DNA from: an uncultured Thermoplasmatales archaeon
Lineage (GTDB): Archaea; Thermoplasmatota; E2; DHVEG-1
Assembly: GCA_964627915.1 (NCBI GenBank)
Contig: CAZVKY010000002.1
Location: 1,727-65,726, forward strand
Length of the DNA: 64,000 nt
Reading direction: 5' to 3'
Numbering within the stretch: position 1 is the stretch's first letter; each line of letters begins with the position of its first letter. The notes under the pieces were generated by a model. That model was not told the origin of the DNA and searched no databases. It saw nothing but the letters and a program-made list of their open reading frames with translations. Positions 34,611 to 58,822 of this stretch are shown piece by piece. Made by a program: the position numbers and the translations under genes.

Positions 34611-34626
34611 ACGAATGATTTGATTA

Positions 34627-39205: not shown

Positions 39206-40084
39206 TTAAAGTAATGGTATAATCCGATGGGCAAACACTGCGGGGGCGGTGATATCATATACACCTGGGGCTCCTGTTTCTGGTTGTAGTTCACCAGAGA
39301 TACTCTCTCTCGGTGAGAGCCCGCCTTCATCTGTAATTATCGCTGAAAGATTAACGATGACAAAGATTCTATCACCGCTATTCATTCCCTGGGTTGAGGT
39401 TATTGAGTTATCTGGGTCATGGATAGATATCACGCCGAATTTTGTTTTGCTGGATTCACCAATTATTGTTTCATCACTTCCTGGACTAACAGGTGTTTTG
39501 AATACGCTTTTATTGTCTGTGTTAACTGATGCGACGAGATTCTCATCAATGGTGAGAAGTGACAAATTATTACAAAGGGTGGTAAGAGTGCAAAGACTTA
39601 GATCAATGTCGTTTGAACCTGCTCGTGGTCGAACAGTTAAAGCAAGATGGGTGATTTCAGTTTTGTTTGTGTTGGTAAAACCGGTTATATCTGTGATGAC
39701 TAATCCTGCAGAAACCTCTCGAATTGTTTGGGTAGCAACATTTTGTGCTTTTTGCTGAAGGCTTTCACTTGCTTGAATGATGACACTAGCAGCTACAGCT
39801 GCAACAAGAATCATGGCGATGAATACGATGAGTGTTCCTATTCCTACCATGGCTTGATCGTTTTTTTCAATTGATTTTTTGTGTTTTTGACTTGGTTTGA
39901 TAGCAATAATGTTTTCTATTCGTAATGCACCAAAACCTTGATTTGAATCGATGATGACAAAACCTGCCCTGTAGTCCACGCCTTCAAGGATTCCATTGAT
40001 GACTTTGACGTTTTGTTCACCTGGTTCACGTGTCACTATTTTGCTGGGTTGACCGACCAGCTTATCCAAATGTTTTTTTTCCAT
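39206..40084 (-). CDS. archaellin-like protein with ~78-aa N-terminal extension preceding the class III signal peptide
   Basis: Residues 79-110 MVGIGTLIVFIAMILVAAVAASVIIQASESLQQKAQNVATQT are the canonical archaellin N-terminal helix. The C-terminal beta domain is archaellin-like (FGVISIHDPDNS...GDRIFVIVNL). Residues 1-78 (MEKKHLDKLVGQPSKIVTREPGEQNVKVINGILEGVDYRAGFVIIDSNQGFGALRIENIIAIKPSQKHKK) have no in-frame ATG/GTG/TTG within the last 45 codons before the cleavage site. This part is small and beta-rich with weak Sm-like motifs. Confidence 0.7.
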   Translation of the reverse strand: MEKKHLDKLVGQPSKIVTREPGEQNVKVINGILEGVDYRAGFVIIDSNQGFGALRIENIIAIKPSQKHKKSIEKNDQAMVGIGTLIVFIAMILVAAVAASVIIQASESLQQKAQNVATQTIREVSAGLVITDITGFTNTNKTEITHLALTVRPRAGSNDIDLSLCTLTTLCNNLSLLTIDENLVASVNTDNKSVFKTPVSPGSDETIIGESSKTKFGVISIHDPDNSITSTQGMNSGDRIFVIVNLSAIITDEGGLSPRESISGELQPETGAPGVYDITAPAVFAHRIIPLL

Positions 40085-40445: not shown

Positions 40446-41069
40446 ATGAAATCCTTAGTATCTTTCACAATGCTTATCATAGCAATAATTGCTGCTACTA
40501 TTATCGTTTCCTCTGCTACGCTTTATGAGGATACACAAACAACTGAAGAAATAACTGAGGAAGACCTTCAAGAAATGATTGAAACCGTTTATGATGATGT
40601 CTCTAGCTATATGAATATAGATGATATCATAGGAAAATTCCACCGGGTTCAACAGGATCGACTGATCAAACAAATTGCTATTCAAATTCACCCTCAATTT
40701 TCAACAAATATCAAACTTTCAGAGCTTATGATTGAGCTATCTAATGGCAATCAAATCATTTTTTTATATCCGAATGGATACTGTGCAGATATTTCTAATG
40801 AAACACTATTCAACCATGGTTTATGGGGGGATTTAGGGAATAGTTCCTTTGGAATTTTAAGTATATTTGATGAGGATAATTCAATGAAGCAGTCCCATCT
40901 GATAAATCAACATTCAGATCGCCTCTTCATCATATTTAATGTACCGCCTTCATTAAAGCTTCAAAGAGGTGATACTATCAAGATAAATCTGTATCCGTCT
41001 ACAGGCGTTAAAAAAGAGCTGGATATAAAGATACCATTTTCGGTTGATCCTGTCCTTAGCCTATGGTAA
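40446..41069 (+). CDS. archaellin-domain membrane protein (FlaF/FlaG-like or minor pilin-like)
   Basis: N-terminal hydrophobic anchor MKSLVSFTMLIIAIIAATIIVSSA. C-terminal region (SFGILSIFDEDNS...RLFIIFNVPPSLKLQRGDTIKINLY) parallels the C-terminal beta-sandwich of the archaellins in this window ([12 protein letters not shown]...[10 protein letters not shown]). Lacks the GIGT archaellin motif. Confidence 0.55.
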   Translation: MKSLVSFTMLIIAIIAATIIVSSATLYEDTQTTEEITEEDLQEMIETVYDDVSSYMNIDDIIGKFHRVQQDRLIKQIAIQIHPQFSTNIKLSELMIELSNGNQIIFLYPNGYCADISNETLFNHGLWGDLGNSSFGILSIFDEDNSMKQSHLINQHSDRLFIIFNVPPSLKLQRGDTIKINLYPSTGVKKELDIKIPFSVDPVLSLW

Positions 41070-41695: not shown

Positions 41696-41931
41696 CTTAA
41701 TAGACATTATTTTTGATATAACAAATGTTTTTCTGAAAAATAATATGATATTTTTAAAGGACCCTCTTTCGTTGCATATGTATCTGCATACACTTTAACG
41801 TATGCAAATGCAAATAAACTATAATAACAGGCGGGTCTTATTTGAGGTTGCACTCTAAAAAAATCTCTATAACTTATGCACTCCAATGAAATGATAAAAA
41901 AAATAAATATGAAAAGGTGGGATGCAAAAAA

Positions 41932-42588
41932 ATGAGACGACTATTTAGAGTGTCCAACGAAAAGGATATAGGGGCCATTGGCATAGGAACGATGATTATT
42001 TTTATCGCCATGGTCTTAGTAGCAGGTATAGCAGCATCAGTTCTTATACAGACGAGTTCTCGACTTGAATCACAAGCAATGACTACTGGTGAAGAAACCA
42101 CAGCGGAAGTAGCAACTGGGCTTTCTGTTGAAAGTGTATCCGGATATGCTGCTTCTGGTAGCGATATTTCAAGATTGGCTATAGAGGTCAGACCTCGGTC
42201 GGGATCTAAAGAAATTGATCTTTCTCAGGCCATGGTGGAACTTTCTAATTCAAGTGTTAAACTGGTATTAAGTTATTCAAGTACGGATTTCATTGATACG
42301 GGCAGTATTGGCGCTGATTTGTTTACAGAAACACATTATTCTGGTTTATCTTCATCAGAATTTAGTATTATTGTCTTGGAGGATGCCGATGGTTCTTGCA
42401 CCGCTAGTTCACCAGTAATTAATCGTGGGGATAAAGTATTGCTTACGGTTTATACAAACGCTGGATTTAGTGATATAGCTGAGAGAACTGATATTTGGGG
42501 TTCAGTAATTCCTGAGGAAGGATCAGCAGGAATAATTGCGTTTCGAACTCCGGCATCATACACGGATAATATTATGAGTTTACAATAA
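41932..42588 (+). CDS. flaB: archaellin (flagellin) FlaB/ArlB paralog 1
   Basis: Class III signal peptide [56 protein letters not shown] 41932 is preceded by GGTGGG. C-terminal beta domain with N-x-S/T sequons. Track start 41917 is GTG. Confidence 0.9.
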
Positions 42589-42784
42589 GGAGGTTGATAT
42601 GAATGAATAAATTATTAAAATTATTTGGTCGTGATGAATCTGGTGCGATTGGTATTGGTACGATGATTATTTTTATTGCGATGGTGCTTGTTGCGGGTAT
42701 TGCTGCATCTGTTCTTATACAGACCAGTTCTCGACTTGAATCACAGGCAATGACCACTGGACAGGATACAACTGATGAAGTAGC
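42579..42784 (+). repeat. 206-bp segment identical to 43268..43473 (3' end of upstream archaellin gene + RBS + first 61 codons of next archaellin)
   Basis: Direct comparison: TTTACAATAAGGAGGTTGATATGAATGAATAAATTATTAAAA...ACTGATGAAGTAGC is identical in both copies, offset 689 bp. Divergence begins immediately after (AGG vs TAC). Confidence 0.9.
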
Positions 42785-43277
42785 AGGTGGTTTAAGTGTT
42801 GATGATGTGAGTGGACATGTTGAAACTGATATCGATATGCTTGGCATTACGGTGAGAGTTCGTGCTGGTTCTCCAGATATTGATTTGAACCATACCATAA
42901 TTGAGTTGACTGATGGATCTACTAAGGTTCTTTTAACTTATGATTATGCCGGTGAAACCGCAGATCCAGCTGAACATTTTAATGCAAGTATCGATGCTGA
43001 TGCAAATTTGTTTAACACTGGAAATATCAGTAATCTTGAAGATAGTCAATTCGGCATTATTGTCTTGGAAGATCCCGATAGTTCATTGAGTCATTACAAT
43101 CCTGTTATTAACCGTGGGGATAAAGTAGTATTGACTGTCGATACAGCTGCTTGTTTTTCTGAAATCGCTGAACGAACTGAGGTGACTGGTAAGGTTATTC
43201 CAGAGATTGGATCAGCAGGAATTATTTCCTTTACCACACCTGCATCATACTCAGATACAGTCTATGATTTACAATAA
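42603..43277 (+). CDS. flaB: archaellin FlaB/ArlB paralog 2
   Basis: [48 protein letters not shown] 9 nt upstream. Sequons NHT, NAS, NIS. Confidence 0.9.
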
Positions 43278-43473
43278 GGAGGTTGATATGAATGAATAAA
43301 TTATTAAAATTATTTGGTCGTGATGAATCTGGTGCGATTGGTATTGGTACGATGATTATTTTTATTGCGATGGTGCTTGTTGCGGGTATTGCTGCATCTG
43401 TTCTTATACAGACCAGTTCTCGACTTGAATCACAGGCAATGACCACTGGACAGGATACAACTGATGAAGTAGC
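43268..43473 (+). repeat. second copy of the 206-bp archaellin 5' repeat
   Basis: See 42579..42784. Confidence 0.9.
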
Positions 43474-43942
43474 TACGGGTCTTGAGGTAATCGATGTTCT
43501 TGGTCATGTAACTAGCAGCACAATTGACAATATGACTATCACGGTAAGGCCTCGATCTGGATCGAAAGACATTGATCTTTCAACAGCCGTATTGGAACTT
43601 TCAGATGGAACTAACAAATATGTATTAAGCTATGATACAACCCCAATTTTTAATACACCAGCTGCAGCAGGTATTTTTTCAACTGATGTCTTCGATGATT
43701 TAACTGCCTCAGAATTTGGGATTATCGAACTCAAAGATGCTGATAATTCTTGTAGTGGAGCTACTCCAGTGATTAACAGAGGAGATAAAGTTTCGTTGTC
43801 TGTGAATGTGACTGCGACCTTTTCGGGGATTTCAGAAAGAACAGAGATTACTGGAAGGATTGTTCCTGAAGATGGTGCTGCTGGTATTATTTCTTTTAGG
43901 GTGCCAGCATCATTGACTGATGAAGTCTATGATCTTCAATAA
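43292..43942 (+). CDS. flaB: archaellin FlaB/ArlB paralog 3
   Basis: First 60 codons are nucleotide-identical to paralog 2 (part of the 206-bp repeat). Divergent C-terminal beta domain. AAGGAGGT ribosome-binding site. Confidence 0.9.
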   Translation: MNKLLKLFGRDESGAIGIGTMIIFIAMVLVAGIAASVLIQTSSRLESQAMTTGQDTTDEVATGLEVIDVLGHVTSSTIDNMTITVRPRSGSKDIDLSTAVLELSDGTNKYVLSYDTTPIFNTPAAAGIFSTDVFDDLTASEFGIIELKDADNSCSGATPVINRGDKVSLSVNVTATFSGISERTEITGRIVPEDGAAGIISFRVPASLTDEVYDLQ

Positions 43943-44030
43943 AATGAGTTTGGAAGATTTTTTTCTTCCATTTTTTTATTTTTTTTGACCACAGCTTTTT
44001 TATTTGATTATCTGTTATGTTTTATCGTAC

Positions 44031-44696
44031 ATGATGGGATGCAGACGATTGGATGGGTCTAGTTCTATTCTTAATGCTGATTCGGCAGCGATAGGTATAG
44101 GGACAATGATTATTTTTATTGCTATGATCCTTGTTGCCGGTATTGCTGCATCCGTTCTTCTGCAGACCATGGATGGTTTGCAAGGACAAGCCATGAAAAC
44201 TGGGAAAGAAACCATGGATGATATCTCATCTGGTATAAAAGTTACACAGGTGACTGGTTTTCACCATGAAAATAAAATAACTCAAATGGCTCTTTTTCTT
44301 TCACCAATTGCTGGAAGTAGCGATATAGATCTATCGATGATAACAGTTTCAATTTCTGATGCCAATAAAAAAATTATTTTTTCGTATAATCAAAGTTGTT
44401 TTGCAGAGACAGTAACTGATAGTTTGTTTCAGTCAATTGATACAAGTCTTCTTGCATCAAATGAATTTGGATTGGTGGTGATTAGGGATTCAGATCAATC
44501 ATGTTCAGCAGCGAATCCTGTCATTGATACCTATGATATTGTTTCAATTGTAATTAACTCTACAAAAGCATTCTCTGGGCTCTCACCAAGAACCAAGATT
44601 CAGGGAGTAGTATCCCCTGAGATGGGGATGAGTGGAACTGTTCGATTCACCACTCCTGCTTGTTTTCCCGATCGAATCATCCAGCTTCAACCATAA
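44031..44696 (+). CDS. flaB: archaellin FlaB/ArlB paralog 4 (more divergent)
   Basis: [60 protein letters not shown]. Track ORF begins at ATG 44004, which would add MIICYVLSY. Confidence 0.8.
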   Translation: MMGCRRLDGSSSILNADSAAIGIGTMIIFIAMILVAGIAASVLLQTMDGLQGQAMKTGKETMDDISSGIKVTQVTGFHHENKITQMALFLSPIAGSSDIDLSMITVSISDANKKIIFSYNQSCFAETVTDSLFQSIDTSLLASNEFGLVVIRDSDQSCSAANPVIDTYDIVSIVINSTKAFSGLSPRTKIQGVVSPEMGMSGTVRFTTPACFPDRIIQLQP

Positions 44697-44734: not shown

Positions 44735-46366
44735 TTACATACCTAAATAACCACCAAGCACCATACTGATTGCTGCAGCGGTAATAGCTACTATCCAAAC
44801 CAATGGAACAAAATATAGCAGAGTAAGAAGCTTGTGGCTTCCCCTTAGCATCCGAATGGTTAATGCCATCATAAAACTGTGGATGATAAGAACGATAAAA
44901 ACGACAATGAAGGTGTTCATAAACATCTGCGGGTCCATTGCCGTAAGAATACTACCGACATCAATAGTTGTTTCAGAGAAGGGATCACCAGCCATTCCTT
45001 CAAGAAGTATTTCATTAAGATGCCGGGCGATAACAAGTGATGTGTAAGCACTAAACGCGATACCAAAGGTGATTCCAGCAAAAAGAGCAGCTGATGTATT
45101 GACTACAGAAAGTTTTTTTACTCGGAGATCCCGGATTTTTCTGATGTTTTCAGCTATCATTCTTGATGCTTTCCGTGGATTAGCTGATGCAGCGGTGGCC
45201 TGTCGAAACATTTCACTGGATCGTTGTATATGATTACTACCCGTGTCCACACCGAACCATTCCCAGGAATGATTATCATTGATTCGTGTTCGTAATCGTT
45301 TGTATAAATCCTTTACATGTCTGGTGAGAACACCATAGTCTTTTTGACTGAGATAATACACCGATTCATTGATCTTTCCACCTCGCATAGTGGAGATGGA
45401 TCCAAGTGAAGGAAGAAAAGAAAGAAAATTCCGTTCTTTTCTAGCTAATTGTTTTTCCACAAGAAACGTTTTCAATCCAGGTATAATCAATGGGGTAACA
45501 GAGAGAGCAAATAGGATTTCATAAGGAATAGAAGTAATAATGGGGAATTGAATGACATAAAGAATAAAAAGCAATATACCAAGACCAATACTTCCAATAA
45601 TCGTTATTTGAAATAAATGTCGTAAATATTTCTCTGTTTTTCCCCGTTGACCGGTGACATGCCATATTTCATCTGGCGGGATCATTGCTCTTAATAAATA
45701 TAATAGTAATCCTTCGGTTATGATAAGAAGAAATGAGGATAGATAAACAAAGGTGTTCATATCCTCCCCACCGATAACAATAGGAAGAACAATACCTAGT
45801 GACATCACAAAGATAATTGAAATCAACAGGCTTACATAGACCTCATTTAAAATAGTGATGTTTTCATTTGAGGTTTCATACATTGTTTTATAGTCCTCAA
45901 GGACTGCTTCTTGCTCAGTTTCGATGAATTCTCTAGGATCAACACCACTGTTTAAACTCTGTGAGAAACGATCCAAAAAATCCTTAAGAATTTTGCTTGG
46001 TGTTCGTTTTGATAAAAACTGAAAGCTTTTAGCAAGAGGCACCCGCCATTGCTCTGAGAGCACACTTATCTTTCTCATTTCCTCTCCCAGGCTTCCATAG
46101 GCATTGTTTCCACCAAGCATGTTTATGATGTCTTTGAGGGAGAGATCTGAGATTACTAATACCCGGAGATGAGTAATAAAAAAATGAATTTTTCCATTGA
46201 TATCTGCTTCCTTATTCTTCCAGGTGATATACGGATAGAGAATTCCAAGCATGATACACAGAAATCCACCAATAGGAAAGATGATAGGTTGGATTGCAAG
46301 TATACTTAGCCCTAATAATGGCAGAATAATAGGAAGGACACAAATAAGAATCCCTAGAGCTATCAA
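44735..46366 (-). CDS. flaJ: archaellum assembly membrane protein FlaJ/ArlJ (TadC/GspF-like)
   Basis: 543-aa polytopic membrane protein with two cytoplasmic T2SS-F-like domains and 8-9 TM helices. Last gene of the minus-strand fla operon, directly after flaI. Confidence 0.9.
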   Translation of the reverse strand: MIALGILICVLPIILPLLGLSILAIQPIIFPIGGFLCIMLGILYPYITWKNKEADINGKIHFFITHLRVLVISDLSLKDIINMLGGNNAYGSLGEEMRKISVLSEQWRVPLAKSFQFLSKRTPSKILKDFLDRFSQSLNSGVDPREFIETEQEAVLEDYKTMYETSNENITILNEVYVSLLISIIFVMSLGIVLPIVIGGEDMNTFVYLSSFLLIITEGLLLYLLRAMIPPDEIWHVTGQRGKTEKYLRHLFQITIIGSIGLGILLFILYVIQFPIITSIPYEILFALSVTPLIIPGLKTFLVEKQLARKERNFLSFLPSLGSISTMRGGKINESVYYLSQKDYGVLTRHVKDLYKRLRTRINDNHSWEWFGVDTGSNHIQRSSEMFRQATAASANPRKASRMIAENIRKIRDLRVKKLSVVNTSAALFAGITFGIAFSAYTSLVIARHLNEILLEGMAGDPFSETTIDVGSILTAMDPQMFMNTFIVVFIVLIIHSFMMALTIRMLRGSHKLLTLLYFVPLVWIVAITAAAISMVLGGYLGM

Positions 46367-46509
46367 GGGTATTAATACGGTTCGAATAAAGGCTTTTTTA
46401 TCTGGTAATGATGCGTAAGCGATTTCAAGTTCTTTAATTCCCTCAATATGGTGAACGGTTTCTTTTATCGGTAACTCATTCGTTTTTTTTGTAGATTCTT
46501 TTTTTCTGT

Positions 46510-48168
46510 TTATTCCACTGAAAATGGTAATCCCTCCGCTCCATTTCGGTAAAAACTCCAGATAGATTGTACCACATCATAGTAATCAAAGATTTCTTCT
46601 TCCACCATTCGTGTCAGGATTTGTTTTCGTAGTTCATATTCATCATAGATCTCAGCGGTATCGACATATCCAGCGTTTTTTGCGATTTTTTCCTCTAAAA
46701 TAAAACTATTTTTGTTAGCTGTGAACACATGATCATCGCTTTCAGATTTCCAATCAAATGCCCTTCGTGCCATGATACCATCGACTTCTCGATTGTATCC
46801 TTCTATTTCATCGATGGAAACACATCGTCTCATTAATTTCCCATTTCGTTCGATGGCTAATTGAATAAAGACAAAATCAAGGTTATCCATGAATGTTTTT
46901 GGAACATTGATGGGATCACCGGTGAACCGCTGAATGACTTTAGTGACATCTCCAGCATGAAAGGTGGTCATCACCGGATGCCCGGTTTGCATTGCTTGAA
47001 AAACAATGTTTCCTTCTGCCCCTCGCACTTCACCAGGGATGATATAATCAGGACGGGATCGTAATGCTGCCTTGAGTAAATCAAATAAATCAACTTGGCC
47101 TTCAGAGGGACCACTGGTTTTTGTGAGTAATCGTTGCCATACTGTATGAGGCACTTGTAGTTCAGGGGTTCCCTCTGCAGTATAGATCTTTCGTTCCGGT
47201 GGAATAAATGGGATGATCGCATTCATGGTAGTTGTTTTTCCACAAGCTGTTCCGCCGCAGAGAAAAAAACTGCGCCCATATTGCAGACAAAGCCAGAGAT
47301 AGGCAGCGATTCCCGGGCTAAGAGTTTGGCATCTAATTAATTGGGTGACGCTAATGGGATTTTCGGTGAAACGGCGGATGGTCATACTAGGTCCTTTGAT
47401 GCTTACTGCTGAACTATAGATAATGTTTCCCCGACTTCCATCTGGAAGCACTCCATCAACGATGGGTCGACCTTCACTTACTGGTGTTCCCATTCGTTCA
47501 CTCAGTATTTTTGCAAAAGCAGGTGCTTCTTTTTCAGAGACAATGACATTTGTTTTAATCATTCCAAATATTTTGTGTATGAGATGAATGGGTTCTCCTG
47601 CGATCAGATGAATGTCTTCGATGTAGGGATCACGCATGAAACATTCAATGTTTGCTCCTCCCAGCAGTTCCTTGAAGATATAATATTGTATCTTCTTTTT
47701 TTGCGGATCAGTTGCTTTAATGGTTTTTTTTGTGAGTTGAAATAGTTTGTTTTTAGAGGAATTGGTTTTTTGCACCTGTTTACTTACTATTACGTATTCA
47801 TCAATGAGTTCACTTAGGTTTTTTCTAAGTTGTTTATCAGTCACCGCACTTTTTTTTTCAATGATGTTTTCTAGGATTATTGTAAGTAATTCATCTTTTT
47901 TTTGTGTTTCTTCTTTGGTTAGTTTCGGTTCGATTGCATGATATTCTAATCCTTTTCCGTTTTCATTTGGGTAGATATGCACAAAAATAAATCCTCGAGT
48001 TAGATAGAGAATATTGATTTGTTGTTGTGATTTTAATGATGTTGAAAGGGTTGCATAAAACCCTGGCATTTCTTTATCCTTTTCTAGATTATTTAAATAG
48101 TCTTGAACATGGGGATTTTTCTGCAGAAGGTTCTTTATTTCTTTCTCACGTAATTGTGTCATCAGCAC
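46510..48168 (-). CDS. flaI: archaellum ATPase FlaI/ArlI (paralog 2)
   Basis: Walker A FFLCGGTACGKTTTMNAIIPFIPP, Asp box and His box of the secretion-ATPase family (GEVRGAEG, MQTGHPVMTTFHA). 552 aa. About 55 % identical to the adjacent upstream paralog. Confidence 0.9.
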   Translation of the reverse strand: MLMTQLREKEIKNLLQKNPHVQDYLNNLEKDKEMPGFYATLSTSLKSQQQINILYLTRGFIFVHIYPNENGKGLEYHAIEPKLTKEETQKKDELLTIILENIIEKKSAVTDKQLRKNLSELIDEYVIVSKQVQKTNSSKNKLFQLTKKTIKATDPQKKKIQYYIFKELLGGANIECFMRDPYIEDIHLIAGEPIHLIHKIFGMIKTNVIVSEKEAPAFAKILSERMGTPVSEGRPIVDGVLPDGSRGNIIYSSAVSIKGPSMTIRRFTENPISVTQLIRCQTLSPGIAAYLWLCLQYGRSFFLCGGTACGKTTTMNAIIPFIPPERKIYTAEGTPELQVPHTVWQRLLTKTSGPSEGQVDLFDLLKAALRSRPDYIIPGEVRGAEGNIVFQAMQTGHPVMTTFHAGDVTKVIQRFTGDPINVPKTFMDNLDFVFIQLAIERNGKLMRRCVSIDEIEGYNREVDGIMARRAFDWKSESDDHVFTANKNSFILEEKIAKNAGYVDTAEIYDEYELRKQILTRMVEEEIFDYYDVVQSIWSFYRNGAEGLPFSVE

Positions 48169-48175
48169 TCATTTC

Positions 48176-49798
48176 CTATAGCGAAAAAGGAAGTCCATCT
48201 TTTCCATGTCGATAGTAATTCCAGATGATGTCTACCACTTGATAATAATCAAATATCTCTTGGTCTACCATCTGTTGAAGTATTTTTTTTCGGGTATCAA
48301 ATTCTTCATAGATTTTCATGGTATCATTTAGACCAGCGGTTTTTGCAATCCGTTGTTCTAAAATGTAGCTATTTCTATTTGCTTTGAATGCATGAGTATC
48401 ATCTGCTGCATTCCATAAAAATGCCTTTCTTGAGATGATACCATCGACTTCTTTGTTGTACCCTTCGATTTCATCTAAGGATAATACACGTCGGATTCGT
48501 TTTCCTTTCCGTTCAACGGCCATTTGAATGAGGACTACGTCAAGGTTATCCATGAAGGTCTTTGGAACATTGATAGGATGACCAGTGAACCGTTGAATCA
48601 CTTTGGTAACTGATCCAGCATGAAACGTGGTAATCACCGGATGCCCGGTTTGCATGGCCTGAAAGACCACTCGTCCTTCTTCACCCCGGGTTTCACCAGG
48701 GATAATATAATCAGGTCGTGAGCGAAGACCAGCAAATAACAAATCGCTCATATCAATATGGGATTCTTTTGGACCAGTGGATTTTGTTAAAAGTTGTTGC
48801 CAAACATCATGTGGTGCTATGACTTCAGGAGTGTTTTCCACGGAATAGATTTTTTTTTCTGGTGGAATAAAAGGAATAATGGCATTGGAGGTTGTTGTTT
48901 TTCCTGAGGCGGTTTCTCCACAGACAAAAAGACTTCGACTATATTGCAGACAGAGCCAGAGGTAGGCTCCCACTGAAACATCAAAAGTCCCCCAGTTTAT
49001 GAGTTGAGTGACACTTAGTGGTGTTTCACTGAATTTTCGCACGGTCATGGTAGGTCCTTTTAAGCTGATATCTTTGCTATGAATGATGTTCACCCGGCTG
49101 CCATCAGGAAGTGTGCCATCAGCGATGGGTTGTCCTTCACTTACGGGACTTCCTATCTTTTCACTGAAATCCTGGGAGAAATCACTAGCCCAGTTTTCAT
49201 CGATGTTGATGTTTGTTTCCACCATATCAAATATTTTATGAATAAGATGAACCCGTTGGCCGGTGATGATATGGATATCCTCTAGATAGGGATCTCTCAT
49301 GAAACATTCAAGTGGTCCACCACCGATGATTTCTTTAGTGATGTCATATTCGATTTTTTGTTTTTCATAATCCGTGGTCTGGATTTTTTTCCCAATAAGA
49401 AAATTGCTTGAAATTTTTTTAGTAGTAGTTATTTCATCTAAATAATGTAAGATTGCCTGACGGATTTCCTCATCTGTTTTCACTTTTTCTCTGAAAGGAG
49501 CGATTTCAAAAATGCGTTCTAGAATTTGATTTCTTTTCTTTGTTTCTTCGATGGATAATTCTGGTTCAATGGAATGATATTCTAGGAAATCCGCTTCAGG
49601 TTTTTGATAGATATGAATAAAGACAACACCTTTTGTGGGATAAATGATGTTTGGATTTTCTATTGATTTGAGATCACGGTTTAATTCTTCATAAAATGCA
49701 GGGCGATCCATGCTCTTTTTTACTTCTTCTAGATATGCCTGCAGATGTGGGTGTTGTTCTAACAGTTTTTTCTCCTCTGCTTCGGTCATTTTCCCCAT
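48176..49798 (-). CDS. flaI: archaellum ATPase FlaI/ArlI (paralog 1)
   Basis: Walker A LFVCGETASGKTTTSNAIIPFIPP, GETRGEEG, MQTGHPVITTFHA. 540 aa with the full-length FlaI N-terminal domain. Confidence 0.9.
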   Translation of the reverse strand: MGKMTEAEEKKLLEQHPHLQAYLEEVKKSMDRPAFYEELNRDLKSIENPNIIYPTKGVVFIHIYQKPEADFLEYHSIEPELSIEETKKRNQILERIFEIAPFREKVKTDEEIRQAILHYLDEITTTKKISSNFLIGKKIQTTDYEKQKIEYDITKEIIGGGPLECFMRDPYLEDIHIITGQRVHLIHKIFDMVETNINIDENWASDFSQDFSEKIGSPVSEGQPIADGTLPDGSRVNIIHSKDISLKGPTMTVRKFSETPLSVTQLINWGTFDVSVGAYLWLCLQYSRSLFVCGETASGKTTTSNAIIPFIPPEKKIYSVENTPEVIAPHDVWQQLLTKSTGPKESHIDMSDLLFAGLRSRPDYIIPGETRGEEGRVVFQAMQTGHPVITTFHAGSVTKVIQRFTGHPINVPKTFMDNLDVVLIQMAVERKGKRIRRVLSLDEIEGYNKEVDGIISRKAFLWNAADDTHAFKANRNSYILEQRIAKTAGLNDTMKIYEEFDTRKKILQQMVDQEIFDYYQVVDIIWNYYRHGKDGLPFSL

Positions 49799-49812: not shown

Positions 49813-50529
49813 TTAGAAGGCTACTCCGCTGGATTCAATGGTTAATCCAACACCAGGTTTGACGGAGAAAGTGGTCATCGGTTCATATTTATGTATTGCT
49901 CCATTGAATTTTTCAAGGTAGATGTTATGAACCGTGCCCACGCCAGGCATTTTTTCTTTAGAAATTTTAAAATGAACATCGGTCATCATTTTGAACCTGC
50001 GATGGATTTCTTCATCCCATTCGGTGTGATTTGCGGTAAGAAAAATGATTTTTCCCGATCCAATTAATCGGTTGAAAAAATTGGTAAGCTCTGGAAGATT
50101 TTCTGTTGTTAGGCTTTTGTTAAGTAAGCTTGAGATTGAATCAATGAAAATGATATCATTTTCAAATAATTGAGGAAACGTTAGTAATTGTTTTAAAAAT
50201 GTTTCCCGAGGATGCGTTTCAGCTAGAGTGACCTCTGTAGATATAAAAAAGAATTTTCCTTTCATTAAGAACTGTCGGACATTATATCCAACTGATGCGG
50301 TTTGTCGGAGGAATCGTTTGATGGTAAATTGTGTTGAGATGAGCGAGCAGGTGTTTGCATTTTTTAGAAAAGAATAGCAAAATCGTTGACAGAAAATACT
50401 TTTTCCAGTTCCTTCTTCACCCTCAATAAAGATAAGGGATCCATTGGGTATTCCTATGCCAAATCGCTCAGCAAAACCATCTTTTTCACCATTTCTTTCT
50501 AAAATCAACGATTTTGCATTTCTTAACAT
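49813..50529 (-). CDS. flaH: archaellum KaiC/RecA-like ATP-binding protein FlaH/ArlH
   Basis: GIGIPNGSLIFIEGEEGTGKSIFCQRF (Walker A). 238 aa. Position between flaG and flaI. Confidence 0.85.
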   Translation of the reverse strand: MLRNAKSLILERNGEKDGFAERFGIGIPNGSLIFIEGEEGTGKSIFCQRFCYSFLKNANTCSLISTQFTIKRFLRQTASVGYNVRQFLMKGKFFFISTEVTLAETHPRETFLKQLLTFPQLFENDIIFIDSISSLLNKSLTTENLPELTNFFNRLIGSGKIIFLTANHTEWDEEIHRRFKMMTDVHFKISKEKMPGVGTVHNIYLEKFNGAIHKYEPMTTFSVKPGVGLTIESSGVAF

Positions 50530-50541
50530 GATGTCACCTTT

Positions 50542-50985
50542 TTATATTTTGAATGTAAAATCATCATCAACTCCACAGGGTCCAACAACACGGATTTGAT
50601 GGTATCCTGAGGTGATGATTGAGCTGTTAATGTGAAGCATGGTGTATTCTGAAGGGTAGAGTGAAATATTTGAAAAAGAAAAAGCGTTTGTGATGATGAT
50701 TTCTCCATCGATAAATACCTGCATTGTTTCATTTGAGGTAGTTAGTTTATTTGAACCTGTATTTCTTATGTAAAAAATATACTGATTATCTGATAAAGGG
50801 ATCATTTCAGGATCATTGATGATAGAAAATTCAGTATCCAATTGTGTTTCTACTCGTTTTCCTTTTTCATTGAATGAACCACTGATGTTAGTGGTAACAG
50901 CAACAAAAATACCAGATACTGTACCTGCGACGATAAGAGCGGCAACGAAAAATATCACATGTGATCCAGTAACACTAAAACCCAT
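50542..50985 (-). CDS. flaG: archaellum protein FlaG/ArlG
   Basis: MGFSVTGSHVIFFVAALIVAGTVSG N-terminus (MGFS start typical of FlaF/FlaG), then a beta-rich domain. Named FlaG by gene order (second of the F/G pair). Confidence 0.7.
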   Translation of the reverse strand: MGFSVTGSHVIFFVAALIVAGTVSGIFVAVTTNISGSFNEKGKRVETQLDTEFSIINDPEMIPLSDNQYIFYIRNTGSNKLTTSNETMQVFIDGEIIITNAFSFSNISLYPSEYTMLHINSSIITSGYHQIRVVGPCGVDDDFTFKI

Positions 50986-50997
50986 AGGTATCCCTTT

Positions 50998-51423
50998 TTA
51001 ATCTTTGTTATGATAATAACTTTCCACCATGTTTGAGGTGATTAATTTTATTCGAGGATTATCTGTTTGGTCTGTATTATAACTGGTAAGATTTGTTTGT
51101 TTTTCAGGGAATAGATATGCATCATTGAAGATAAATTCTTTAATGCTTCCATTAATTAAGAGCATACATTTTTCCACATCGATTGTTTCACTTCCACTGT
51201 TCTCTATGGTTATGGTGTAATCATAGGTCGAGCCATTTATGGATGTTGTCACATTAGTAATACTGAAATCGGTTTGTGATCGAGTTATTTCCCGCTTTAT
51301 CATATGTTGTTGTGATTCATGGATATCTGTGAGTTGGGGAAGAATCCCTCCTGAAATAATCTCTAGTGAAAGTAGAATCGAGACGCCTATGATAGCAAAT
51401 GATGCGGAAAGTGAAAACCCCAT
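50998..51423 (-). CDS. flaF: archaellum protein FlaF/ArlF
   Basis: MGFSLSASFAIIGVSILLSLEIISGG N-terminal anchor and a beta-sandwich domain with sequons (NVTT, NGST, NGSI, NLTS). First of the F/G pair. Confidence 0.7.
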   Translation of the reverse strand: MGFSLSASFAIIGVSILLSLEIISGGILPQLTDIHESQQHMIKREITRSQTDFSITNVTTSINGSTYDYTITIENSGSETIDVEKCMLLINGSIKEFIFNDAYLFPEKQTNLTSYNTDQTDNPRIKLITSNMVESYYHNKD

Positions 51424-51461: not shown

Positions 51462-52265
51462 TTATTTTTTCATATTGGTTCCATTTATTTCTTTTCCCAT
51501 TTTTTCTAATTTTGTATTGATTTTAAACAAAAAATCATCATGAACTGCGGATCCTCTCAATTTTTGAATAAACATAAATGATTGAAGATGATCATCAATG
51601 GTAAAAACAGGTTGATGATGCTCTTTACTATCGGTATCCACAGTGAAGGTGATTCCTTTTGCATATTTCATTAAATCTAAGCGAACATCTTCAGTGATCC
51701 AGTTAATGCTGACATAATAATCAAGGATGTCTGAGAGATATTGCTGGCCTAGTTTATCCGAAAGGTATTGTAACCATTTCATGAGTACGACTACGTTTTC
51801 CGGGGTGTTTTTTATCCCATTGAGTGGTTGCATATCTTCATCTGTTGATCGATGGTTAGATTGAACAGATGGGAAACCTGTTTTTTCATTCCGTTTTGTT
51901 TCCTCAAAAAAGTGTTGTTGAATCTCTTCTATGTTTGCTATTTTTCCTTCAATATATGATAATTCTTCGTTTAGTTTTTGTAAGGAATCTGAGTCCGCTG
52001 TTTTATTAGCTGATACGAAATTATTTCCAATAGCTGTTTCCTTTTCTTTGGTGCTATTTTTCCCAGAGTCAACGTTATCCTTGAAATCTTTTTTTGACTG
52101 AATAGTGGAAATCAATCTTAAAACGTCATTTTTGCTTAGTTCTAGTTTTCGTTGTTGCACTTTTTTAAAAATTATATCAGTAACTCGAGCTGTGATTTTA
52201 TTTTTTTCAACAAGATCATTTAACAATGCCTGTAATTGATCTTGGTTTAAGTCTTTTTCATTCAT
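51462..52265 (-). CDS. flaD: archaellum accessory protein FlaD/E (ArlD/E) family
   Basis: Coiled-coil N-terminal half. Conserved C-terminal FlaD/E block ENVVVLMKWLQYLSDKLGQQYLSDILDYYVSINWITEDVRLDLMKYAKGI. Confidence 0.7.
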   Translation of the reverse strand: MNEKDLNQDQLQALLNDLVEKNKITARVTDIIFKKVQQRKLELSKNDVLRLISTIQSKKDFKDNVDSGKNSTKEKETAIGNNFVSANKTADSDSLQKLNEELSYIEGKIANIEEIQQHFFEETKRNEKTGFPSVQSNHRSTDEDMQPLNGIKNTPENVVVLMKWLQYLSDKLGQQYLSDILDYYVSINWITEDVRLDLMKYAKGITFTVDTDSKEHHQPVFTIDDHLQSFMFIQKLRGSAVHDDFLFKINTKLEKMGKEINGTNMKK

Positions 52266-52299: not shown

Positions 52300-53007
52300 C
52301 TATGCTACGGTATCTAAAAATAATGAAATCTTTCGTTTTAGTTCATAATCCTCATCGACCGTATCGATTGCTTCATCCACCATATGTTCTAATTGTTCAT
52401 CTGTGACACTGAAATTTAGTGGGTTAGAAGAGGAAAAACTTTCATTTTTAGGTTCATCTTCGGTTTTTACTGAAAGAGGTGAATTAATCGATGGTGTTAA
52501 CCCTTTTTTTTGCCTCTCTTTTAACTTTCCTTGTTCTAAATCAGATTCTATTTGCATCATTTTGGTTTTCAGATTCTCGATTTCCTTAGAATAATTTTCC
52601 AATGCATCAATCCGTTTCTTTGTGACTCTTGATAAACCAACAAAAGGATTCATCTGTTCAGAGACAATCTCGTAAAGACTGACCAAATCATCAAGGTTTT
52701 CGGTTACACTATTTATTTGTTCGGTAAGTTCTTCCAGTTGTTTTTTATTTTCATTGATCCTGAAATCAAATTCCTTTATCTGCTTAAGATATTCCTTTTT
52801 TTCTTTAAGCTGTTTTTTTAACGGTTGTTCTTGCTGATTTTGATTGTTTTTTAATTGCTTTTTCTGTGATTCTTGTTCATCTGATGATGATTCCTTGTTA
52901 TCATCCGAATCAGTTTCGTCAACCTGAGATGAATTATCGTTCAATTTGATGACTCTCCGTAGGTTATCTTTCCCATCACTTTTTGCAGTGGTTTCTTTCT
53001 GCTGCAT
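52300..53007 (-). CDS. flaC: archaellum accessory protein, FlaC-like (coiled-coil)
   Basis: Acidic Ser-rich N-terminus, long coiled coil with LVSLYEIVSEQMNPFVG (FlaC/D/E-type YE.VS...NPF block). First gene of the operon. Assignment by position plus motif. Confidence 0.55.
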   Translation of the reverse strand: MQQKETTAKSDGKDNLRRVIKLNDNSSQVDETDSDDNKESSSDEQESQKKQLKNNQNQQEQPLKKQLKEKKEYLKQIKEFDFRINENKKQLEELTEQINSVTENLDDLVSLYEIVSEQMNPFVGLSRVTKKRIDALENYSKEIENLKTKMMQIESDLEQGKLKERQKKGLTPSINSPLSVKTEDEPKNESFSSSNPLNFSVTDEQLEHMVDEAIDTVDEDYELKRKISLFLDTVA

Positions 53008-53478: not shown

Positions 53479-54783
53479 CTAGACATTGAAATAAAAATCC
53501 ACATCCACATCTGAAACTTCCCGAAGATAGTTTTGACATTCTTCCTTTTTATTGGAGATATAGGCATCGATAAGATCTTTCCCCATAAAGTGATGTAATT
53601 CAACATCCTTTTCTAATGCGGCCAACGCTTCAAATAAATTTTGAGGGAGTTTTTCAATGCCTTCATTTTTTATTTCTTCCTCGCTCATATGATAAATGTT
53701 TTTTTCAATGGGTTGATAGCTGATTTCCTTTTTAATGCCATCAAGACCTGCGTAAATAAGAGCAGAGAAAAACAAATATGGATTTGCAGAAGGATCTGCA
53801 TTTCTTACTTCGACATCAATATTTTTCTTAGCAGCAATTCGAATGAGACTACTTCGATTGTATTGGCCCCAGGCAATGTAAAGTGGTGCTTCAAAATGTG
53901 GAATTAACCGTTTGTATGAATTCATAGTTGGATTAGCAAAGGCAGCGATACTTTTTGCATGGTGAAGTATGCCTCCAATAAAATATTTTGCCTGTGGGCT
54001 AAGATGACGTTTATCTTGTTCATCATAGAAACAGTTTTCATTATCCTTAACAAGGGAAAGGTGAGCATGCATTCCATTTCCTGCTTCATCCTCAAAAAGC
54101 TTTGGCATGAAAGTAACCTGTAAATTTTCTGATGAAGCGATGTGTCTGGCAAGATATTTAAAATACATTGAAAAATCCGCTGCAGCAATAGCATGCAATG
54201 ATTTGACTTCTATTTCATGTTGATATCTTCCATTTTCGTGATGATGATATTTTACCTTAATCCCACTTTGTAATAACATTTCTGATATTTTTTTACGAAA
54301 TGGTTTACCGTTATCAAGTGGTGGTGGAGAAAAATATCCATCGTTTGCTTTTGTATTAATATTTTCTTCTTGATTTGATGAAAGGACAAAAAATTCCATT
54401 TCTGGTGAGATATTTACCTGTTCAAATCCAAGTGAAGCGGCATGTTTTACTGTTTTTTTAAGCGTATTACGAGGATCGATTGGACAGGAGGTATGGGTGG
54501 TATCATAGATATCAGCGATAAAACGTGCTTCGTTTTTATTATTTGGTAACACAAGAAAGGTATTTGGATCAGGCACCGCTAGCATATCTGATTTTTCAAC
54601 GGTTTTTAAACCAACAGATGATCCATCAAAACCACATCCGTTTTTAAGAATATTATCTTCGATAAACTGTTTTGCTGGAAAATGGACGACTCTCAGTGTT
54701 CCAGAGAGATCAGTGAAATGAATTTGAATCCAAGAGATATGCTGTTCTTCTATTTCTTGAATAATTTTTTCTTCTGTCATCAA
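53479..54783 (-). CDS. glnA: glutamine synthetase (type I-alpha)
   Basis: GCGFDGSSV, NISPEMEFFVL, KYHHHENGRYQHEIE, PKLFEDEAGNGMHAHLSL, SYKRLIPHFEAP. Typical GS catalytic blocks. 434 aa. Confidence 0.9.
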   Translation of the reverse strand: MMTEEKIIQEIEEQHISWIQIHFTDLSGTLRVVHFPAKQFIEDNILKNGCGFDGSSVGLKTVEKSDMLAVPDPNTFLVLPNNKNEARFIADIYDTTHTSCPIDPRNTLKKTVKHAASLGFEQVNISPEMEFFVLSSNQEENINTKANDGYFSPPPLDNGKPFRKKISEMLLQSGIKVKYHHHENGRYQHEIEVKSLHAIAAADFSMYFKYLARHIASSENLQVTFMPKLFEDEAGNGMHAHLSLVKDNENCFYDEQDKRHLSPQAKYFIGGILHHAKSIAAFANPTMNSYKRLIPHFEAPLYIAWGQYNRSSLIRIAAKKNIDVEVRNADPSANPYLFFSALIYAGLDGIKKEISYQPIEKNIYHMSEEEIKNEGIEKLPQNLFEALAALEKDVELHHFMGKDLIDAYISNKKEECQNYLREVSDVDVDFYFNV

Positions 54784-55565: not shown

Positions 55566-56663
55566 TTATTTTGTAATCATTCCCATTTGGGTGAGCTTAT
55601 CAGGTAGATAGGTATCTGTTACATAGTCAAGGCCATATTTTGCAAGAGCCTGTTGTTCTGATTTTTTTCCAAGTTTTAATTGTAACTTGATTTCATGTTT
55701 CCAAAATGAGTCCTGAAACCGAGGATCGGTAAGCTCACTTTTCAATGATTTAATGTCTTCTTTTGTTAGACTATCGGTTGGAAGATCATAATTTTCAATA
55801 TCTGATGGGGTCACACCAAGATAAGATGCGGAGGGAGTAGCAAGGTATTCAGAGATATGAGCAGTTTTTATAGCGCCATACGCAACACTAGCAAAAATCC
55901 GGAAACTCCATGGATCACAATCAGTAAACACCACGACTGGTATGTTTTGTTCACTGTTCAACCGTTGAATGAATCGTCTGGTTGATCGAGCTGGTTGTCC
56001 TTTAAGATGAACTAATAATGCTTGATATTCTTCATCAAAATGATTTTCAACTAATCGATCAAACATACCACCAGTTTCTATCGCTAAGATAAAATCAACA
56101 TCTGCTTTTTTAAATTTGATTTTCTCTGGTTCTACATTGTATGGAATAGAGTATCCTGAATCTCCTACATCATCCTGACAATGAATCTTTTTAGTAGTGT
56201 TATTCCGGGTTTTTTCCTCAAGGGTGAAATTACCGATAACACGTGCACCATCTTCTTCAGGGCGGAGTTTAAAATCCTCTCTCATCAGTGTAGTAATCAC
56301 TTCTAAATCTTCTGCAAGATTATTTGATTCATTTTGGGAATGAAATTTTGCTAGATCCCAGCCTTCGGAAATATAATACATTTCTCTTAATGTTGATGAT
56401 TTTTTAATACGAATCATTTCCTTGATAAAATCAACCATATACATGGTTCGTAGCAGCATATAAGCTCCATCAAGTGATTTCGCGGATCGTTGGATTTGAT
56501 TTTTACCATATTTCCAAACATTCAATGTTTCATCAAAATAAATGTTTGATTTTGATCGAGTTGGTAGTTGTAATGAGGGAATGTCCGTGTTGCTCAAATC
56601 AGTATGAATTTTTTCTGCGATGCTATCGATTTTTTTAATGATCGGTTTGTAATCTTTTTTCAT
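55566..56663 (-). CDS. top6A: DNA topoisomerase VI subunit A (Spo11-like)
   Basis: Winged-helix catalytic-Tyr region then a Toprim domain ([30 protein letters not shown]). ATG 56663 (MKKDYKPI) lies 2 nt after the top6B stop, with GGAGGGG 7 nt upstream. Track start 56684 (MGRRGIIM) would overlap top6B. Confidence 0.9.
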
Positions 56664-56665
56664 GA

Positions 56666-58624
56666 TTATTCCCCTCCTTCCCATTTATCAGCACCGATGA
56701 CATAGGATGGATTGATTTGTTCGATGTAAAGATCATTTTCATCAAAATCTCCTTTTTCTAGCCCAGCGAGTTCAAAATTGATGTCGACTTTTCCAGCTGG
56801 AGGAATGTCTTTAAGTTTCCATTTAAGATATCGATCTGAGGTTTTCACTGGTGCAGGTGTGACTTCACCAACGACTGCATCCTCAGGGATAATTGCATAA
56901 AGGGTAAAGTGTTGTGGTTTCTGTTTGTAATTTGCAATGAGGATTTTGCTTTTAGTGATTAATCCTTCACGTCGCTGTTGAGATGATGGGTTTTGCATCA
57001 GCGTGGTTTGAACCGGGACATCAACCGTTTTCTTTGATGGTTTTACTTTTTCGTATTCGATGATATCTTCTATCCAGACCACATCCATGATCTTGGTAAT
57101 AACCGCATCTAATGATGGCACTGGTTTTTTTATCATGGTTGATGATTTCTCCGCTATTTCTGGCAGGATCTTAGTGATCAGCATGAATTTATCCCGGGTT
57201 TTCTTTCGTTTCACTTTTTTCCGGATATGTCGTTGCACGTTCCGAGCACATGATCGAAGAGCAAGTTTTATTTCAGTTTCAATTTCAGGAACATCTGCAA
57301 TTGCTTCTTTGCTCTCTGAGGTAAAAGGTATCTGTGTTGATGAAACATGAATAAGAAAAATAGCAGGTCCTGAGGGGATTCCTTTCCCGGATTTTTGATC
57401 AAAACCATATCGTCGCCAGTCAATAGATGCGATTGCTTTTGTTGCGATACAGCCTCCTTGTTGATATAAAAGAGGCACTCGATTGGCAAATCGCATGATA
57501 CGAGCTGGATTATCCTTCGGAAGATCTCCTCCATACACGAGTCCAACTTCCACTTGAAAGGGATTGCCAGCATATGCAGAGGCTGGACGTGAAGCAGTGA
57601 TGATGAATTCAGGTGATATCTGCTGGGTTTCATTTTTCAAACTTCTTCTAATAAGCGTTTGCCCAATGGGTGAAAGACAATCAGTTGGTGGTGACATTAT
57701 TTTTACTTTTTTGAATGCTTTATGTAATGCTAAAAACTGTGTCCTTGACATTTTTTTGGGAATTAAATCAGGATCAAGATCTGCTTTCTCACAGACAGAT
57801 TTAGTAGTTCTCATTCCCATACTCGTAAACTCTGTCCTGAGAAAAGAGGAGAGTTTTCTAGCTTTGGTTTGTTTTGCCATTTTAATGAGGGTGCCCAGTT
57901 CGATACCATACGGATGTGGTTTGATTTCTTCACTTTTTTTGGGAAGAACATCAGTAGTGCGTTCAAAAGTATGCGTAATCCCATCTGGTTCCGAGTATAT
58001 GATTCGAGCGTGAGGATTAACGATGGAAGTGTTTTTTAAATATTCATAAACATATCGTTTTCCCCGGATGTAATCTGCTTGAATGTGCACCTCTATTTTG
58101 GTTCCGGTGAGTTTTTCCCAATGAATTGTATCTCGACTGATGGTTTCAGCTCGGTTTTTATTGGTGTTGATTGCCAGTTCAATAACTGCTGCGGGCATGT
58201 CCTCTTGTACCTTTGAGGTGATCTTTGCATGTTTTCCCGTGGTCAGCTGTCCATATAATACTACTGCTGAGATACCAATGCCTTGTTGTCCTCTACTTTG
58301 TCGGATGGCATGGAATCGTGATCCGTAGAGTAATCGACCAAAAATGTGTTTGATTTGTTTTTTCACGACACCGGGTCCATTATCCTCAACGATGATGGTG
58401 CATTCTTCATCTTCTTCATGATTGGTAATGGTCACGGATATTTCTGGGGGGATGTTGACTTCTTCACAGGCATCTAATCCATTGTCTACGGCTTCTTTGA
58501 TACTGGTGACCAGTGCCCTGGTGGGATTACCGAATCCAAGGATGTGTTTGTTTCGTTCAAAGAACTCAGCAACAGAGATTTCCTTTTGTTTTTTTGCTAG
58601 ATCATGAGCGGTTAATTGTGCCAT
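56666..58624 (-). CDS. top6B: DNA topoisomerase VI subunit B (GHKL ATPase)
   Basis: [31 protein letters not shown], Bergerat-fold blocks ([29 protein letters not shown]), transducer domain. ATG 58624 is preceded by GGAGG. Track start 58672 adds 16 aa. Confidence 0.9.
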
Positions 58625-58822
58625 ATGATGGTTTTCCTCCAGGATAATCAGTAGGATGGATTTGCATCCCATCTTGTAATAATACAGATAATTATAAAGC
58701 TATTCCTTAGAGATCAAAGAAGGTATTGTTGTATGGTCAAATTGTTATTAACAATTATTGAAATAAAAGAAGAGTTAAATCATATAATATGTGATATAAA
58801 AAAAGAAGAATTTGATTTTTTA

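Follow-up and report, generated by a model that had tools for sequence, protein, structure and literature searches.

Archaellum loci have been reported to carry a single FlaI, FlaH, FlaJ, FlaF and FlaG (Makarova et al. 2016), and reviews describe FlaI (ArlI) as 'the sole archaellar ATPase', which 'needs to be switchable'. Here we analyzed a 64,000-nucleotide (nt) stretch of DNA from an uncultured sediment archaeon of the Thermoplasmatales (the window; contig CAZVKY010000002.1, positions 1,727 to 65,726 of the forward strand), whose archaellum operon contains two full-length motor ATPase genes, arlI1/flaI1 and arlI2/flaI2, in tandem between one arlH/flaH and one arlJ/flaJ. The window pair matches the canonical ArlI/FlaI proteins (Sulfolobus acidocaldarius FlaI, PDB entries 4II7 and 4IHQ, and Pyrococcus furiosus ArlI) in family, domains, catalytic motifs and predicted fold, and its genes, like theirs, lie between arlH and arlJ; however, canonical arl operons have one arlI, whereas in the Thermoprofundales two diverged copies are fixed across the clade. 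More than one flaI per genome is likewise found in Methanosarcina (fla2A/fla2B) and Methanococcoides burtonii (fla1 and fla2), but there the whole cluster is duplicated and each flaI has its own flaH and flaJ, while in the window flaI alone is duplicated within one operon. Two ATPase paralogues, CdiPE1 and CdiPE2, have been reported from just one archaeal operon for a type IV filament, the pilus operon of Cuniculiplasma divulgatum (Thermoplasmatales), which also belongs to the Thermoplasmatota and was called 'an intriguing outlier' in a 2025 paper; that operon encodes an Aap-like adhesive pilus, in contrast to the archaellum operon of the window.

The bacterial PilB/PilT(/PilU) sets are likewise paralogous hexameric ATPases of the same superfamily that work on one platform protein. 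PilT and PilU lack the PilB N-terminal domain, are much more diverged and drive retraction, and retraction is not known to be a function of the archaellum. Unlike PilB and PilT, the two window proteins are both full-length, 57% identical, adjacent and of the FlaI type, and they do not differ in domain architecture. The PilB/PilT sets are thought to derive from the duplication and sub-functionalization of a bifunctional ancestor, possibly through heterohexamers (PMC6711533). In the literature that we searched, whose subscription part and supplementary tables were not fully searchable, no description of an archaellum with two arlI/flaI genes was found; the Thermoprofundales genome paper by Zhou et al. 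does not mention motility, and PMC9585477, on Thermoprofundales genomes, goes no further than listing FlaI, FlaJ and FlaB among the genes of predicted plasmids.

An earlier note on this DNA had read the locus as two full-length FlaI genes in tandem, about 55% identical and neither of them looking decayed, in a type of operon that normally has a single flaI; the last point agrees with the reviews. Both open reading frames (ORFs) were found exactly there, on the minus strand, with flaH upstream and flaJ downstream: the upstream paralogue arlI1 (48176..49798) encodes 540 amino acids (aa) from an ATG start, and the downstream paralogue arlI2 (46510..48168) encodes 552 aa from GTG 48168 or 550 aa from ATG 48162. 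The public protein model identical to ArlI2 (P0121) has 550 aa, and ATG 48162 is probably its start. The flaI1 stop codon and the flaI2 start are 7 nt (GTG) or 13 nt (ATG) apart, and a scan for sigma-70 promoters and intrinsic terminators, which is uninformative for an archaeon, reported no terminator-like site between the two genes. ArlI1 and ArlI2 are colinear from residue 1 to the C-terminus, and BLASTP aligned them over their full length with 57% identity, 76% positives and an E-value of 0, which rules out a chance likeness.

Both proteins matched the NCBIfam FlaI equivalog NF058587 (cutoff 550 bits) end to end on its 527-position profile, with 669.0 bits for ArlI1 and 668.7 bits for ArlI2. 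The best match to a non-FlaI family, the bindosome ATPase BasE, reached 163–186 bits against a cutoff of 1000, TadA and VirB11 scored no higher, and the PilT family TIGR01420 gave 43–44 bits against a cutoff of 319. The best PDB match of ArlI1 was S. acidocaldarius FlaI (4II7, E = 5e-104, residues 8–497 aligned), and its alignment with 4II7/4IHQ spans the catalytic Glu336, which is mutated in 4IHQ. The fold test was applied to ArlI2 only: its AlphaFold2 model (AF2; pLDDT 76) best matched 4II7/4IHQ (~534 columns, TM-score 0.76–0.82), and archaeal GspE and CpaF ranked behind the FlaI chains. The FlaI-type N-terminal domain that the earlier note had assigned to both copies was thus recovered in ArlI1 by the alignment to 4II7 and in ArlI2 by the AF2 fold match, and the secretion-ATPase C-terminal domain, with the Walker A lysine, the Walker B glutamate and the His-box histidines, is present in both. 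By sequence and, for ArlI2, also by predicted fold, the window copies are bona fide FlaI/ArlI.

The Walker A motif reads CGETASGKTT in ArlI1 and CGGTACGKTT in ArlI2, in agreement with the strings of the earlier note, and neither copy has a damaged Walker B motif (DYIIPGE.RG.EG) or His-box region (TGHP..TTFHAG). The catalytic residues are Glu369, His386 and His393 in ArlI1, and ArlI2 retains Lys311, Glu380, His397 and His404; no inactivating substitution, which the note had named as a result that would speak against it, was found at the K/E/H/H positions of either copy. K/E/H/H do not vary among 54 ArlI1 (I1) and 57 ArlI2 (I2) sequences, and the Lys/Thr of Walker A and the DGSR motif vary little or not at all. 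In 206 alignment columns, conservation reaches at least 90% and the two clades have the same residue; these columns include Walker A GKTT, DGSR, Walker B DYIIPGE.RG.EG and TGHP..TTFHAG.

The pair proved to be a property of a whole clade. A scan with one genome per GTDB species returned 69 loci, and the 55 ingroup loci in which flaH and flaJ are both present all have a gene of the I1 type and then one of the I2 type between the two. Nine additional loci at contig edges show both copies, and four loci are cut inside or at I2; an apparent absence of I1 in two loci (L011 and L012) came from stretches of N in the sequence records, and tblastn detected the two copies in each. The second gene was also present on 3/3 contigs reached independently from I1 orthologues, and another 12 metagenome contigs carry the I1-I2 pair. 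Orthologues of ArlI1 (67–98% identity) occur in every related locus and those of ArlI2 form their own series (63–100%). In the database searches, which gave orthologues at 73–96% identity for ArlI1 and 66–100% for ArlI2, many contigs were common to the two match lists, such as the one with the adjacent genes AYK25_08785 and AYK25_08790 of Thermoplasmatales archaeon SM1-50. The intergenic gap ranges from −1 to 126 nt across 50 genomes. The pair-bearing set includes two closed chromosomes (CP070724 and CP070712) and the metagenome-assembled genomes (MAGs) SM1-50, SG8-52-3 and 3300003432D, which Zhou et al. list as Thermoprofundales (MBG-D), a group equivalent to GTDB class E2. More distant neighbors (the loci L070 and L071, DPANN, Halobacteria and Methanosarcinales) have the canonical single flaI.

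The ratio of nonsynonymous to synonymous substitution rates (dN/dS; Nei-Gojobori, five species pairs) was 0.03–0.13 for both copies, the same range as for flaH and flaJ, and this check, together with the intact ORFs, bears out the impression of the earlier note that neither copy is decaying. We rejected a pseudogene or an assembly artifact on the same grounds and in view of the two closed chromosomes and about 60 independent assemblies. Almost certainly, arlI was duplicated in tandem in the stem lineage of a Thermoplasmatota clade to which the named Thermoprofundales genomes (MBG-D, E2) belong, and all sampled descendants have kept the two copies in the same order, under strong purifying selection and with complete catalytic machinery. 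What the earlier note had missed is that the pair is an old clade-wide trait, with the same order in about 60 species-level loci, and that other archaeal lineages have comparable tandem pairs.

The age and origin of the duplication were examined with neighbor-joining (NJ) trees only (200 bootstraps), which contained 25–70 other FlaI-like sequences, some of them representative proteins at ≤47% identity to the query, and no pilus ATPase outgroups; the separation of both copies from pilus and bindosome ATPases is supported by the wide gap in HMM scores to BasE, TadA and VirB11. I1 and I2 were each monophyletic, in 200 and 190 of the 200 replicates with the first data set and in 200/200 each with the second, and in these trees the two clades were sisters within the FlaI radiation, on a long stem, with both copies equidistant from the outgroups. 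The reciprocal monophyly gave no sign of gene conversion between I1 and I2, and with 57% identity it led us to discard a recent duplication as well as gene conversion; a horizontal acquisition of the second copy was discarded on the sister position of ArlI2 to ArlI1 in the FlaI tree and the equal FlaI equivalog score. Two metagenome loci, L124 and L143, are the sister of the I1+I2 clade (joint clade 200/200). They share the operon order and have a similar GC content, their one FlaI is 58–59% identical to I1 as well as to I2, and their FlaH and FlaJ are 60% and about 55% identical to those of the window, respectively. A duplication after the split from L124/L143 had 61% NJ support, and the two alternative topologies, which would imply that one copy was lost in the L124/L143 lineage, had 21% and 18%. 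This lineage is a useful proxy for the state before the duplication; its FlaI has TGHPC together with a canonical P-loop.

We then compared the two copies as follows. First, fixed I1/I2 differences are found in nine alignment columns at a 90% threshold and 18 at an 80% threshold, and ArlI2 is more derived than ArlI1 at six of these 18 clade-diagnostic sites, among them the P-loop and D243→A. The P-loop changed from GETASGKTT to GGTACGKTT in ArlI2 (Glu to Gly and Ser to Cys), the outgroups having Glu in 90% and Ser in 80% of the sequences, and the position following the catalytic Glu is occupied by Thr in I1 and by Val in I2, against Ile in the outgroups. The second P-loop cysteine of ArlI2 forms a C304-x4-C309 arrangement across Walker A (residues 304–309, window 47242–47259), and most I2 orthologues have a further Cys after the first His-box histidine (TGHPC), where the window ArlI2 has Val; from its cysteines, redox sensitivity of the ArlI2 nucleotide site is possible. 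Second, the divergence is concentrated in the N-terminal half: residues 61–160 are 40% identical, versus 73% in the C-terminal ATPase domain, and ArlI2 has an additional basic loop at residues ~132–146. This diverged stretch aligns with residues ~51–110 of S. acidocaldarius FlaI, a region that may well contain the three-helix bundle reported as needed for membrane localization, for which the review gives no residue range. In the cryo-electron tomography model, the N-terminal half of ArlI faces the membrane. Third, the N-terminal ~30 residues, which according to a review are required for rotation but dispensable for assembly in S. acidocaldarius FlaI, are present in both copies.

Since the operon has one flaH/arlH and one flaJ/arlJ, both ATPases must serve the same motor. 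The pairwise distance matrices of I1 and I2 from 32 genomes were correlated with r = 0.94, and after removal of the signal common to the other five fla genes the partial r was still 0.77, the next best values being 0.40 for FlaJ-FlaG, 0.37 for FlaH-I1 and 0.30 for FlaH-I2. This covariation is suggestive, in that it fits a direct contact or a tightly shared constraint between the two proteins. The small distance between the genes and the single flaH and flaJ likewise speak, indirectly, for a shared complex. After duplication of a homomeric type IV filament ATPase, heterohexamers are the default expectation for as long as the interfaces have not diverged (Beeby 2019, PMC6711533). As co-assembly is the default and the ring-forming domain is 73% identical, we tentatively favor a mixed ArlI1/ArlI2 ring with divided labor as the most likely arrangement, although our confidence in this sequence-based reading stays a little below even. 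In such a mechanism, the closely spaced flaI1 and flaI2 would be co-transcribed and act on one ArlH/ArlJ motor, their products would co-assemble as a mixed hexameric ring under ArlJ, and the two protomer types would partition the jobs of a single ArlI, namely filament assembly and bidirectional rotation, with the membrane-facing N-terminal region as the most diverged part and a presumably retuned nucleotide-binding loop in ArlI2.

Several observations weigh against the mixed ring. Both Thermoprofundales copies retain all catalytic residues and the full N-terminus, and each could equally form a working homohexamer; at the 90% threshold only nine sites show fixed differences; and the spacer of ~120 nt in some species leaves room for separate regulation. 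The I1-I2 covariation may in part reflect homology, length and conservation, which give similar site-rate spectra and low sampling noise and need no contact. Finally, the asymmetric active sites that favor a heteromer, described next, occur in other lineages and not in the Thermoprofundales.

A metagenome scan with a FlaI profile from outside the Thermoprofundales yielded 65 loci from other lineages, five of which (L079, L081, L091, L126 and L132) have the order flaH-flaI-flaI-flaJ. The two copies are 49–58% identical where both are full length; in L091 the upstream copy is a fragment of 173 aa, over which the identity is 66%. L126 is from Candidatus Hydrothermarchaeales, and orthologues of both its copies lie together on contigs of a Hydrothermarchaeales MAG and of archaeon BMS3Abin16 (P0430/P0433 and P0431/P0434). 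The L126 copies are each other's sisters with 99% support, so this duplication was independent of that in the Thermoprofundales; the copies of L079/L081 sit elsewhere in the tree than I1/I2, L132 was not resolved and L091 was too partial to place. With independent flaI-flaI pairs in other lineages, the tandem duplication of arlI is recurrent.

In contrast to the Thermoprofundales pair, which has the first His-box histidine in both copies, one copy of these other pairs lacks it. In the Hydrothermarchaeales pair, one copy has GESACGKT with TGHP and the other has GETASGKTT with TGLP, the latter kept in three sequences, and in L079/L081 and L132 one copy shows analogous His to Asn and His to Arg losses (AGNS or AGRP for TGHP); the partner copy has an altered P-loop (GESACGKT or GKTAA). 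The Ser to Cys change in the P-loop of one member recurs in the Thermoprofundales, in Hydrothermarchaeales (copy 1 of L126) and in L132 (copy 2), but not in L079/L081. A copy that has lost the first His-box histidine and is nevertheless conserved is what one expects of a subunit that works only beside an active partner, and the asymmetric catalytic sites of some lineages are what a heteromeric ring would predict. The stronger proposal would be that an obligate heteromeric ArlI1/ArlI2 ring drives the archaellum of the Thermoprofundales and, independently, those of the Hydrothermarchaeales and other lineages, with assembly and torque split between the protomers, as an intermediate towards the PilB/PilT state. 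We regard this proposal as rather unlikely as it stands; if true, the divided labor would show in the P-loop Cys that recurs in one partner and in the His-box histidine that, in some lineages, the other partner has lost. As a separate observation, many of the FlaI-like representatives P0243–P0285 are 700–1270 aa long and have their FlaI match split into two or three stretches, usually with a break after about query residue 384, near the Walker B/His box, which looks like intein insertions in the FlaI of other lineages.

The main rival to the mixed ring is that two homohexamers alternate on the single ArlJ, one for assembly and one for rotation, or one for each direction of rotation, as an early-stage analogue of PilB/PilT. 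The complete catalytic motifs and full-length architecture of both copies mean that each is possibly an autonomous motor, and the most diverged, membrane-facing N-terminal half is a site where platform- or mode-specific contacts would be made. In the prevailing view, moreover, one ArlI has to be 'switchable' between assembling and rotating the filament, and the accepted explanation of PilB/PilT is that a bifunctional ancestor was sub-functionalized. However, the rotation-specific N-terminal ~30 residues are in both copies, leaving no obvious 'assembly-only' copy, and the paralogues, with 57% identity and the same domains, are far more alike than PilB and PilT. Also, the very strong I1-I2 rate covariation is more easily explained by direct contact, and with 73% identity in the C-terminal domain, cross-assembly would need active prevention. 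We consider alternating homohexamers a possible arrangement, to which we would give about one chance in three. A hetero-oligomer and a sub-functionalization had both been suggested in the earlier note, and these two are the leading explanations here.

Alternatively, the two copies may be condition-specific isoforms that do the same job and are tuned to redox, temperature or ATP level, with ArlI2 possibly being the redox-sensitive one. The second P-loop Cys of ArlI2, the third Cys of TGHPC in most of its orthologues and the intergenic gap of up to 126 nt in some species are in keeping with this idea. In the window genome, however, the genes are 7–13 nt apart with no reported terminator-like site between them, which makes differential expression unlikely, and the window ArlI2 does not have the TGHPC cysteine. 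Isoforms are, furthermore, often lost or shuffled, whereas the pair is co-retained in the same order in 55/55 loci under near-equal constraint. This explanation therefore appears improbable to us.

That one copy has turned into a non-hydrolyzing structural or regulatory subunit is very improbable. It would suit the more derived state of ArlI2 (Glu to Gly and Ser to Cys at the P-loop, plus D243→A) and the loss of the His-box histidine in one member of the tandem pairs of other lineages, but the near-invariance of the Walker A Lys/Thr, Walker B Glu, His-box histidines and DGSR in both copies opposes it, and P-loops of the GGT..GKTT type are normal in active relatives such as CpaF and VirB11. The suggestion of the earlier note that the second FlaI powers a separate, co-expressed type IV pilus-like system is largely refuted and can be set aside with little hesitation: although archaella-bearing archaea usually have other type IV pilus loci too (Makarova et al. 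2016), the two FlaI equivalog scores are equal at 669 bits and far above those for BasE, ArlI2 is sister to ArlI1 within the FlaI tree, the genes lie between flaH and flaJ in every relative, and there is a single flaJ, with no second platform gene, pilus genes or second pilin set at the locus.

The window has a low GC content of ~36% and is a fragment of an archaeal chromosome. Its minus strand carries an accessory operon of the euryarchaeal arl1/fla1 type in the order flaC-flaD/E-flaF-flaG-flaH-flaI1-flaI2-flaJ, with archaellin genes adjoining. The first gene is an arlC (flaC)-like coiled-coil gene (52300..53007; PF05377, E = 5e-12), followed by arlD/E (flaD/E; 51462..52265; PF04659, E = 3e-24) and the genes of two stator proteins, arlF/flaF (50998..51423; NCBIfam ArlF 62.8 bits, below the cutoff, and a weak PF01917 match) and arlG/flaG (50542..50985; PF01917, and NCBIfam ArlG 96.6 bits, below the cutoff). 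The single-copy arlH/flaH (49813..50529) encodes the KaiC-like ATP-binding partner of ArlI (Pfam PF06745); it scored 192 bits with NCBIfam ArlH, below the cutoff of 215, and 181.6 bits with FlaH PRK08533. Downstream of the ATPase pair lies the single-copy gene of the membrane platform, arlJ/flaJ (44735..46513, minus strand, start uncertain; PF00482 T2SSF, NCBIfam ArlJ/FlaJ 454 bits). No further gene for a T2SSE-type ATPase or a T2SSF-type platform was found in the 64-kb window.

In flaJ, no ATG, GTG or TTG lies upstream of the conserved N-terminal motif KELEIAYASLPDKK (window 46367–46513, minus strand), which is encoded in frame directly after flaI2. The mechanically called ORF starts at TTG 46366, and comparison with relatives indicates that this start would remove the conserved N-terminus. 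In the relative L072 a TTG overlaps the flaI2 stop, while the window and a 96% identical relative (L001) have ATA there; a 608-aa flaJ ORF in L001 was dismissed as an ORF-finder artifact caused by a chance ATG within flaI2. The flaJ of the window lineage has either a non-canonical start or a shortened ArlJ product.

Convergent with flaJ are four tandem archaellin genes (flaB/arlB) on the plus strand (41917..44696; individually 41917–42588, 42603–43277, 43292–43942 and 44004–44696), which encode a class III signal peptide and archaellin N-termini; tblastn showed their family relations, and the same convergent layout is found in relatives. Two more archaellin-like genes lie away from these four: 39206–40084 (minus strand), with a ~75-aa N-terminal extension before a class III signal-peptide-like segment that is either real or an artifact of the ORF start, and 40446–41069 (plus strand), with a weak archaellin family match (23 bits). 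Adjoining the archaellin genes, at 32433–39062 on the minus strand, are three signal-transduction genes, for a HisKA/HATPase kinase, a receiver-PAS-PAS-DUF835 protein and a multi-PAS HisKA_2 kinase, which may regulate motility; no che genes were found among ten flanking ORFs checked against Pfam. A glutamine synthetase gene (53479–54783, minus strand) lies directly upstream of the fla operon, and further on are the genes of topoisomerase VI subunits A and B (55566–58672, minus strand). With these genes nearby, the context is that of an archaeal chromosome and not of a plasmid, contrary to the plasmid location that PMC9585477 predicts for some Thermoprofundales archaellum genes.

The pair corrects the statement that all archaella have one ATPase: in a large and environmentally abundant archaeal order, two diverged, active-looking ArlI copies have been retained beside a single ArlH and a single ArlJ. 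How one ATPase can assemble the archaellum and then rotate it in both directions is an open question, and ArlI1 and ArlI2 are a natural experiment on it, in which the few fixed differences (P-loop, position following the catalytic Glu, N-terminal helical region) are candidates for mode-specific residues. The two proteins lend themselves to expression and to tests in vitro or in an archaeon with genetic tools. The recurrence of tandem arlI pairs, elsewhere with asymmetric active sites, suggests a general evolutionary route for the ATPases of type IV filaments.

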